A stretch of 64,000 nucleotides of DNA from Octopus vulgaris. Taxonomy: Eukaryota. Location: NCBI GenBank assembly GCA_951406725.2, contig OX597815.1:806001-870000 (forward strand), written 5' to 3'. The position numbers and the translations under genes are program-made. The notes below the pieces were generated by a model. It was given only the letters and a program-made list of their open reading frames with translations, did not search any database and was not told the origin of the DNA. Positions 4,201-7,200 of the stretch are shown here, piece after piece. The first letter of the stretch is position 1, and each line of letters starts with the position of its first letter.

Positions 4201-7200
4201 TGTAATAGCTTAATAATAATGATGCCAGGCGATTTGAGGGTGCAATGTAAGGGAAGAGAAAAGAATGAGAAATAGCAGCGACTGCGGGACGAGATTGGAA
4301 AGTTATGAGGAAAGTAAAGGTGATACCGGTGGGAACTGGAACAGTAGGAGCAGTTTCCAAGAGCTGTAGCAGTAGTAGTAGTAGTAGTAGTAGTAGTAGT
4401 AGTAGTAGTAGTAGTAGTAGTAGTAGTAGTAGTAATAGTAATAATAATAATAATAATAATAATAATAATAATAATAATAATAATGTTTGGCAGAAGGGCA
4501 GCGATCTAGCAGGAGGAGTTAGTCAAGTTAGCTCCACTACTTGACTGATAGTTTATTTGATCAACCCTGAATGAATGAAAGACAATGTTAACCTAGGCAA
4601 GATTTGAACTCAGAATACAAAGAGCCAGAAAAAATGCTGTAAAGCCTTCTCTCAACACATTTTTAATGATTAATGATACTTCTTTCTAGCAGAGGCAGAA
4701 GACCTGAAGGGTTTGGTCAATCTTAACCCCATGACTTGACTGGAACTTTATCTTATCAACCCTAAAAGAATGAAAGACAAAGTTTGCCATGGGATTTGAA
4801 CACAGAATGTGAAGAGCTGCAAGAAATAGCCACAAGACATTTTCTCTGCCACTCTAATAATTCTTAATGCTCTACTGATTCAGCTGTTCTCAATCGGGAT
4901 CCATATGACCCTTGGCAGGGTCCCTAGAAGATTTTATTAAAATTTATCTGTAATGAATTATTGTTCGAAAATACAAGGACACAGATCATGTTGTATGGCC
5001 AGCTGGAGACAATGTCTCCCGGGGCTAAATTACAGCAACATTCGTCCTAAACCAGGACTGCCATGTTATGTTGGCAAACAATCTTTACTCCAAAGCACTT
5101 TTGCTGAATGTCTCTCGTTGTGAGATTTACAAATAGTAATTTTCTAAAATGTTTTCACTTCGGCAATACATAAAAACTTTAACAATTTTTCTATACAATT
5201 TCTTATTAAGATTTAATCATAAAAATATGATAGGAATGTTTTAGACATTGAATGGCTATGAGGACCCAGTCAAGTAAAATATGAACCAAAGGGGTCCACA
5301 GGCAAAAAAATGGTTGAGAACTATTGCTCTACTGAGTCCTGGTGCCAAACGACCAATCTCAAATAACAAATATAATATATGGACACAATTGCGGTGTGGA
5401 AGGTGTTTATAAGCCATTTAAGAAACACACAAAAGCTGTTTGATTCACTTCAACATTTAAGTTTAATTTGTCAAAATATTTTCGTCGCTTTAAGAACGCG
5501 ACCCGTTCACTGACAAAAATCCGGATTTTTGTCAGTGAACAGGTCGCGGATTTTAGCAACGAAAATATTTTGACAAATTAAACTTAAATGTTGAAGTGAA
5601 TCAAACAGCTTTTGTGTGTTTCTTAAATGGCTTATAAACACCTTCCACACCGCAATTGTTTTCGTTCCAGCACACGATCTCAGATCAAATCACTTGCTAT
5701 GCGAGTACATCTCCGTAAAATAATATATGGAGCTATTGAAGAATTTGTTCAAAGATAAGACATACCTCTCCGTCAAGTATCTGTGTTGCAACATCAATTC
5801 CAGTTTTGGCTGGGACATACAAAGGTGTCGGGGGACGATCTAGAAAGTAATCCGTTTGGATGTCAACATCAGCTTCTTCAACACGGTCAGAGATTTCTTC
5901 AAGATAAAGCTCAGTTTGAACATCGATGTGTTTTCTACCGGGGACTGGTTCTGGGGTCAGCCTCTCAAACTGTTCCTTAGCACGTCTTCTTGCATTAGCT
6001 CTTCGCTTAGCTTCTTGCCGACGTTGGGCCTCGAGAGGATCTGGTTGAGATTGCTATAAAAATTTTTTTAAATATTATATTGTTTACATCACAAGAATTT
6101 TAAAAACTTCAAGAAAATGGTGAAACTTTTAACGGTGAAACTTGAAGCAAGATAAAGCTATGAACAACAGCATGCGAATCATCATCATCATCATCATCAT
6201 TTAACATCTGTTGTCCATGCTGGCATGAGTTGGACAGTGTGACCAGAGCTAGTAAACTGGGAAGCTGCACCAGACTCCAGTCTCATTTCTATGGTTTCTA
6301 CAGTGAATATTGGGTTTAAAAACTCTTTGGATAGAAAAGTTGATTTTTTTTCCTATCCAAAGAGTTTTTTTTAATTAAGCACATTTGTTTACTGTTGTTG
6401 TTTTCACCAACCAATTCCCAGTGCCAGGCATTAATCAGTTTGAGACTTTGCTAGAAGACATGGGCAAGACAGTCTTCTTAATTGCACAGCCATGCCTGGG
6501 GCTACATTTACTGCAACCATCCATAATCCACTACACTGTTTCAATGCTGTATTCTCTTGTTTGCAGCAACAACAACAACAACATCCTCCCAAACTCTCAC
6601 TTCCATTCCCAACAACACAAAACCAAAACAACCGTATTTCTCTTTCCTTGAACGACTTCTGCAGACTTCCACCTCACATCACCTGTTTTTCCACCTTCTA
6701 TGTGTAGATGAATACCTATGTGTATTCATCCAATAATACAGTATCGCCTCATGAAATGAATCAATGATGATGATCAACCGGATGCCCATGGATGATACTA
6801 ACTGCAAGGATACTGACTCTGATGTCAAAATCATGGGATTTGTGGGAAAGGGTGAAGTGATGTGTTAAGTATTTATAAATGCCATCCTAGAATTATTGTT
6901 GTTGTTGTTACATTTATCCTGCATTATATCGGTCTAACCATGATGCAACCCTGAAAATCGGACTCACTGGTCAGTCTCATTAGTTGGTAGCCGGCATAAT
7001 GAAAAGGAGCTTTATTTGCATATCGTTAGCATTACCATAAACGAATTTAAAAGACGTGTGTGTATATGTATATGTGTAAATGTGTGTGTGTTTCTGAATC
7101 ATCATCATCATCATCATCATTTAGCGTCAGTTGTCCATGCTGGCATGGGTTGGACGGTTTGACCAGAGCTGGCAAGCTGGAGAGCGGCACCAGGCTCCAG

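Follow-up and report, generated by a model that had tools for sequence, protein, structure and literature searches.

The window analysed here is a 64,000-nt stretch of the Octopus vulgaris genome (contig OX597815.1). On its minus strand lie two exons of an RSPH3-like gene, at 981-1415 and 5733-6053. The part of the second exon that matches Pfam spans 5766-5951 (PF06098, E 4.7e-27, residues 35-96 of frame 5733-6053), and a GT donor is found at 5765-5764 (minus strand). A short insert lies 34 nt inside the intron of this gene. It is bounded by two exact copies of the 12-bp target-site duplication (TSD) ATAATATATGGA, the left one at 5372-5383 and the right one at 5720-5731. The same intron also contains, judged by eye, an RTE-like non-LTR reverse transcriptase (RT) fragment (1918-3257, plus strand).

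The insert consists of two arms in opposite orientation. The inverted, tail-less arm (5385-5522, minus strand) corresponds to positions +11 to +148 of a longer element and comprises part of its 5' UTR, a hammerhead motif and the first codons; the direct arm (5523-5718, plus strand) corresponds to +11 to +206 and carries a tail. Except for the loop of stem II and two single sites, 5385-5522 and 5523-5659 are reverse complementary: 5385-5489 pairs with 5555-5659 over 105 nt at 99% identity, and 5497-5522 with 5523-5548 over 26 nt at 96% identity and a 0-nt spacer. Loop II is of a 9-nt subtype in the minus arm and of an 8-nt subtype in the plus arm. The 12-bp TSD, the palindrome of about 275 bp, the tail and two damaged hammerhead-shaped motifs with a G3:C8 core had all been described in a previous sequence-only reading, and all can be read at these coordinates. 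That reading had called the palindrome loopless, which is correct for the window copy but does not hold as a trait of the family, as the spacers of other copies vary. Similarly, the "60-nt tail" is present (5660-5718, plus strand), as the stretch between two inferred reverse-transcription start sites at ~+148 and ~+206; since a start codon is found at 5627, however, the tail is coding sequence. The start codon and the first 30 codons of the element's RT-GIY-YIG open reading frame (ORF) occupy 5627-5718 (plus strand), and the frame continues in a longer copy (L208).

The minus strand of 5372-5731 folds at -229 kcal/mol (z -31.9), and none of 100 shuffled sequences folded as well. A transcript through the insert would thus be modelled as one long hairpin, which would hide both hammerhead motifs. 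The earlier description of "back-to-back" ribozymes therefore carries no ribozyme meaning, as the motifs lie on opposite strands and the transcript is predicted to fold as this single hairpin. When compared to a family copy, 5385-5489 and 5555-5659 have four substitutions in common, yet their loop II subtypes differ. The shared substitutions suggest that arm-to-arm gene conversion occurred after the insertion.

We number the motif by the hammerhead positions as used for this type of motif. The plus copy (5528-5577), as read from the sequence, contains stem I (5528-5534/5571-5577, 7 bp), the core GUGAACA (5535-5541) with G3 at 5535, C8 at 5540 and A9 at 5541, an extra G at 5542, stem II (5543-5547/5556-5560, 5 bp), GAAA (5561-5564), a palindromic stem III AATATT (5564-5569) and U17 at 5570. 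Stem II carries a CpG-type G>A change at 5558; the motif is intact in the autonomous copies L101-L107. The minus copy (5467-5517), which we compared with a family copy (L044), has G3 at 5510, C8 at 5505 and an A9G change at 5504. Its cut site is predicted between 5474 and 5473, and with the A9G change it is likely dead. Since both motifs are mutated and locked in the long hairpin, the window copy as a whole is likely dead; the stem II and A9G changes had already led to the suggestion that this insertion may be inactive, and we agree. The form of a minimal type I hammerhead was also recognised correctly: stems I and II, a palindromic stem III, the extra base and, in intact copies, the consensus core are present. 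Intact family copies have U4 G5 A6, A9, G12 A13 A14, A15.1-U16.1 and H17, of which the window minus copy lacks A9. The literal C3 and G8 of the CUGANGA pattern are replaced in the family core by G3 and C8.

To place the insert in a family, we searched the genome (2.8 Gb in 227 contigs). With the insert as query, 2,440 candidates were found, of which 40 were scored, the best at 91-94% identity; a 25-nt anchor downstream of the motif had 4,078 exact matches genome-wide and none in the reversed control. Upstream of the motif, longer copies contain a microsatellite-rich region and, beyond it, an ORF in which RT motifs, a Cys-x3-Cys-x2-Cys linker and a GIY-YIG domain are recognised. In two of them (L063 and L101), the single ORF shows RT motifs in its translation and a GIY-YIG domain at 23.1 bits (PF01541, cut-off 22.6); the Pfam search of this ORF gave no match to an RT family. 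All seven long-ORF loci examined (L101-L107) have an intact G3:C8 motif ~1 kb past the stop codon, and five (L101, L103-L105, L107) include inverted copies. In L208, which has the structure pLTR-ORF-pLTR, the arm runs straight into the ORF and recurs at its 3' end. Judged by its sequence, the insert is thus the 5' end (5' UTR and first 30 codons) of an autonomous Penelope-like element (PLE). The proposed Penelope-like origin is borne out by the RT, the GIY-YIG domain, the pseudo-LTRs, the inverted copies and the one-sided tails, and longer copies joined to RT and GIY-YIG ORFs, which the sequence-only reading had proposed to look for, do exist (L063, L101-L107, L208).

The element shares several properties with Neptune and Nematis elements as described by Craig et al. 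2021 (PMC8557442): a C-terminal GIY-YIG domain with CCHH, a CX2-5CxxC linker, inverted 5'-truncated copies, a one-sided tail and a (TA)n bias. Both the linker and the CCHH endonuclease are found in the element ORF, and its sequence fits an EN+ PLE of Neptune or Nematis type as defined there. We consider Neptune the likely type because of the (TA)n target bias. The best named relative of the element protein is an Octopus vulgaris protein (58%). In the following, family A is the family of the window element, B and C are sister families and D is an older lineage. Over its first 200 amino acids, the family A ORF shares 35% identity with family B (E 2e-35), and a query with the N-terminal RT retrieved families A and B and no further families. 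Among viral contigs, 22 candidates included no relative, and among metagenome contigs 35 candidates yielded a single weak match of 39 aa. Three other elements were noted in passing: a further PLE-like RT-GIY-YIG frame from another family (L066:3001-5808), a canonical minimal hammerhead (CUGACGA) of an unrelated family (L104, near 3129) and, by eye, a Tc1/mariner-like transposase frame that adjoins a family A copy (L061, 4246-4962).

We then asked how widespread the exchanged core pair is, using a genome-wide motif pattern in which positions 3, 7 and 8 and the inserted base were left free. Among 6,663 matches (none in reversed controls), 5,994 have G3:C8, 302 have a base other than G at position 3 and 367 combine G3 with a base other than C at position 8. 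Of the family arms retrieved with an anchor that lies beyond the motif, 73 of 74 carry G3 and 79 of 81 carry C8. The swapped core, which CUGANGA searches would miss, is therefore family-wide, as had been predicted. Contigs of three public sequencing runs cover the arm, and none of the 40 listed variant sites (of 66) falls on position 3 or 8. Among the first 100 of the 302 rows without G3, 31 have C3:G8 (by eye). All of these have a short loop II, none has a family A loop, and the 11 that were fetched as loci belong to family C. The start of the family C ORF resembles that of family B, and an ORF search near family C motifs matched family B in the N-terminal part alone. C3:G8 is also found in family B (53-54% protein identity, ORFs of up to 1,312 aa), together with a C at position 9. 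Families B and C escaped a strict hammerhead scan, which accepted perfect palindromes alone, and were recognised by eye and by pattern. Family B is young and of high copy number; in one of its copies (L200:2632-2680), the core has the non-consensus C at position 9 and a donor-like GTAAGT lies just upstream.

The search for lineage D gave 28 matches, two of which are family C. In the remaining 26, G3 is found in 22, C8 in 20 and both in 16, and C3:G8 in none. Lineage D differs from family A in having C at N7 (21/26), in its loop II and in a palindromic stem III of 4 nt (AAUU, compared to AAUAUU in family A). The sequence outside the core, on its downstream side, unites A with D and B with C (60 shuffles per pair). 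The swap is thus, by sequence comparison, retained in the older lineage. In 46 chosen rows, which were selected by pattern and are related to one another, the 3-8 pair is G-C in 22, C-G in 14, G-U in 3 and other in 7. For one pair of stem II, 25 rows have G-C, 12 have A-U and 9 have G-U; the change between G-C and A-U at this stem II pair covaries with the 3-8 swap. As the rows are pattern-chosen and related, the swap counts as one evolutionary event: C3:G8 in the same place in two sister families is natural covariation, but a single instance of it. From published PLE motifs we infer that C3:G8 is the ancestral state. At the level of sequence, the minimal PLE hammerhead occurs here as a natural, family-wide G3:C8 variant, with covariation inside one genome. 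It is likely a natural ribozyme variant that is predicted to self-cleave.

The minimal PLE hammerhead with its extra base, its palindrome and a U3:A8 covariation has been described by Cervera and de la Peña 2014 (PMC4209133). As in the PLE hammerheads presented in that study, the octopus motif is located in a pseudo-LTR whose element encodes RT and GIY-YIG, has one base between positions 9 and 10.1, a G10.1-C11.1 pair and a palindromic 15.2-16.2 region, and occurs in many solo and opposite-strand paired copies. It differs from these motifs, which have C3:G8, in its G3:C8 pair and its perfect 7-bp stem I. The cores listed in Fig S3 of the same paper all begin with CUGA or UUGA and none with GUGA, and U3:A8 is the sole 3-8 covariation reported in the sections available. 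The inserted base is G in the octopus element, compared to the published consensus H, although one listed motif has G. Natural 3-8 covariation also appears in Perreault et al. 2011 (PMC3088659), again, in the accessible text, as U3:A8 only. Engineered G3:C8 is mentioned in passages of PMC8495972 and PMC3884650, and in a PLE hammerhead an engineered C3G/G8C exchange restores activity in part, according to Frangieh et al. 2024 (PMC11167929). What is already known is thus the U3:A8 covariation and the partial activity of engineered G3:C8; what is an engineered rescue there is the natural state in the octopus element. We found no natural G3:C8 hammerhead in the literature searched, key hammerhead and PLE papers being outside that scope; the available portions of PMC6765202, PMC6155905, PMC7761336, PMC10085705, PMC13725137, PMC11014351 and bioRxiv 10.64898/2026.07.22.740005 contain none. 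The core search in PMC8557442 used cuganga and would not have matched the octopus motif.

To understand how the palindromes arise, we analysed the ends of 93 arm contexts, taken at 92 of the 100 anchor places listed first (of 4,078). The eight places left out are all long copies; with these restored, long copies make up ~18/101, compared to 10/93 in the analysed set. Just over half of the 5' ends (48/93) fall between -4 and +3, counted from the A of AGATGC, and loose ends in sequencing run X1 pile up at the same base (56 contigs). An extra G is a signature of cap copying by reverse transcription. The templated base before AGATGC is C; among 22 cases with another base in this position, 19 have G. 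This would be expected if a cap had been copied; the copies are not independent, and several of these Gs may derive from the other arm or the target. The 3' ends are bimodal, with 36/93 at +145 to +152 and 47/93 at +203 to +206. The arms represent 71 insertions, 31 palindromes and 40 solo arms. Exactly one arm is tailed in all 31 palindromes, and the 23 centres that could be read are all different. Among the 30 best window-like copies, two are tailed at both ends. Loop II could be classed in both arms of 13 pairs, of which 11 match and 2 differ; the window copy is a mixed pair. Where readable, the TSD elsewhere is mostly 8-14 bp long, compared to 12 bp in the window, and pure (TA)n is the best duplication in 21 of the 71 insertions. 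According to these statistics, the two start sites may be divided between the arms of an inverted insertion, one site to each arm. In long copies such as L046 (1477-1501), a branch-point-like ACTAAC, a pyrimidine tract and a YAG end directly at the 5' pile-up.

We thus propose, with a probability of roughly 0.6, that the insert consists of two head-to-head 5' ends of a PLE with RT and GIY-YIG (likely Neptune), likely made in one insertion, and that its G3:C8 motif would cut weakly. The protein of the element would nick both target strands 12 bp apart, and each nick would prime reverse transcription inside the mRNA, one at ~+148 and the other at ~+206. Both cDNAs would reach, or nearly reach, the likely capped 5' end (+1, AGAUGC), and the two short cDNAs would be joined head to head, so that the palindrome is made at insertion. 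The template would be uncleaved RNA. Stems I and II of the motif would form in the full-length RNA, and a cut after U17 would need either a partner, through the palindromic stem III, or the protein of the element. This proposal resembles what Frangieh et al. 2024 (PMC11167929) report for PAc, a Poseidon element of Anolis carolinensis: the PLE protein nicks both strands and extends them on unprocessed RNA, the limits of the tail are set by its two internal start sites, and the PLE hammerhead needs protein. PAc and the octopus element share a hammerhead near the ORF start, AT-rich targets, a tail that equals the gap between two internal start sites and an unprocessed template. Unlike in PAc, the octopus tail measures ~58 nt and the hammerhead lies wholly in the 5' UTR. 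Furthermore, the start sites are used one per arm in the octopus genomic palindromes, whereas no strand difference was seen for PAc in vitro. A more far-reaching version of our proposal, in which the swapped lineage is long-running, cutting and under selection (~6,000 copies) and priming is two-nick and strand-specific on capped mRNA, is tentative and falls somewhat short of even odds.

The sequence-only reading had favoured a non-autonomous palindromic family, which PLE proteins would copy as a unit. Such a family could account for the many dispersed, full-length look-alikes at 91-94% identity and for the four substitutions shared by the window arms, but the latter also fit arm-to-arm conversion, and the unique centres, the tail asymmetry of every palindrome, the solo arms and the identity of the arm with the 5' end of autonomous copies contradict the claim, so that unit copying is largely refuted and we regard it as very improbable. 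A retrozyme, or any non-autonomous unit, was rejected, as there are no tandem same-strand hammerheads (the two motifs are on opposite strands) and the centres are unique. The long inverted repeat could also point to a MITE or a microRNA hairpin in which the hammerhead is coincidental; in the Rfam scan of the insert no hammerhead row appeared and only microRNA models scored, all below the gathering threshold. However, TSD length is variable, the tail is one-sided and sister families have canonical hammerhead cores; we rejected this reading, by far the least probable, because the arm is directly continuous with an RT-GIY-YIG ORF. The 5' pile-up might mark a splice acceptor or an RT stall instead of a capped start. 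This is compatible with our two-nick proposal, and the acceptor-like sequence directly before the site speaks for it, as does the D. virilis Penelope intron, which ends at helix I (PMC4209133). We nevertheless consider it unlikely, as no shared upstream exon was seen in the copies and a single G stands alone before AGATGC in most non-templated cases, some possibly from the other arm or the TSD; from its sequence, the +1 site may serve as an intron acceptor as well as a transcription start.

A further reading keeps the element and its insertion route but takes the G3:C8 motif as non-cutting, be it a protein-binding fold, a translation control or a passenger. No arm among the 93 starts at the predicted cut (+59), and only two start within 3 nt of it. 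Among the first 100 of the 367 rows with G3 but not C8, ~32 are family A G3-G8 mismatches (by eye), compared to 8 of 100 family A C3-C8 rows in the mirror search (by eye); this excess may reflect a broken-pair sublineage that spread, or an intermediate. An older ORF-linked copy (L205, 2232-2291) has such a G3-G8 mismatch. Family B, moreover, amplifies despite its non-consensus C at position 9, the inserted G of the family A motif departs from the published H, which also speaks against a working ribozyme, and for PAc, hammerhead mutants had no effect on insertion in vitro and no reads ended at the cut (PMC11167929). On the other hand, without the active fold, in which positions 3 and 8 pair, it is hard to account for an exact double transversion that restores this pair, and family A and lineage D have retained core and stems despite changes in N7, loop II and the length of stem III. 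Mismatches outside CpG number 46/2,702 in core and stems, compared to 180/3,219 in the loop and UTR. The expectation that core and stems are better kept than their flanks is thus supported by the mismatches but less clearly by the shared-variant sites (1/33 in core and stems, 7/40 elsewhere; Fisher p=0.065). In a natural intact copy (L046), the MFE structure holds stems I and II with pair probabilities of 0.47-0.84. A second Rfam scan gave no hammerhead among the 150 of 154 rows listed; it missed the canonical family C too. All in all, we rate a non-cutting motif as rather unlikely and retain the weakly cutting one.

Surveys for hammerheads use CUGANGA descriptors (plus U3:A8), and elements scored as hammerhead-less may therefore carry a swapped one. 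If the more far-reaching version of our proposal is true, an animal genome contains a natural G3:C8 ribozyme in ~6,000 copies that is invisible to such searches. The four related families in one genome, two with G3:C8 and two with C3:G8, of which one also has C9, amount to a set of natural mutants with which to ask whether cleavage is required of PLE hammerheads. Internal priming at two sites, so far shown in vitro for one element, gains support from the genomic distribution of arm ends; under the more far-reaching version, the palindromic insertions would be the record of two nicks, with either target strand priming at a fixed site of its own on a capped mRNA. One last observation concerns L046 (1472-1706), where sequencing run X12, guessed to be RNA, has 12 A>G and 12 T>C sites, compared to 3 and 6-7 in two other runs. 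At 1613, for instance, A>G reaches ~13% in X12, compared to <0.1%. The excess in this run would fit A-to-I editing of palindromic hairpins.
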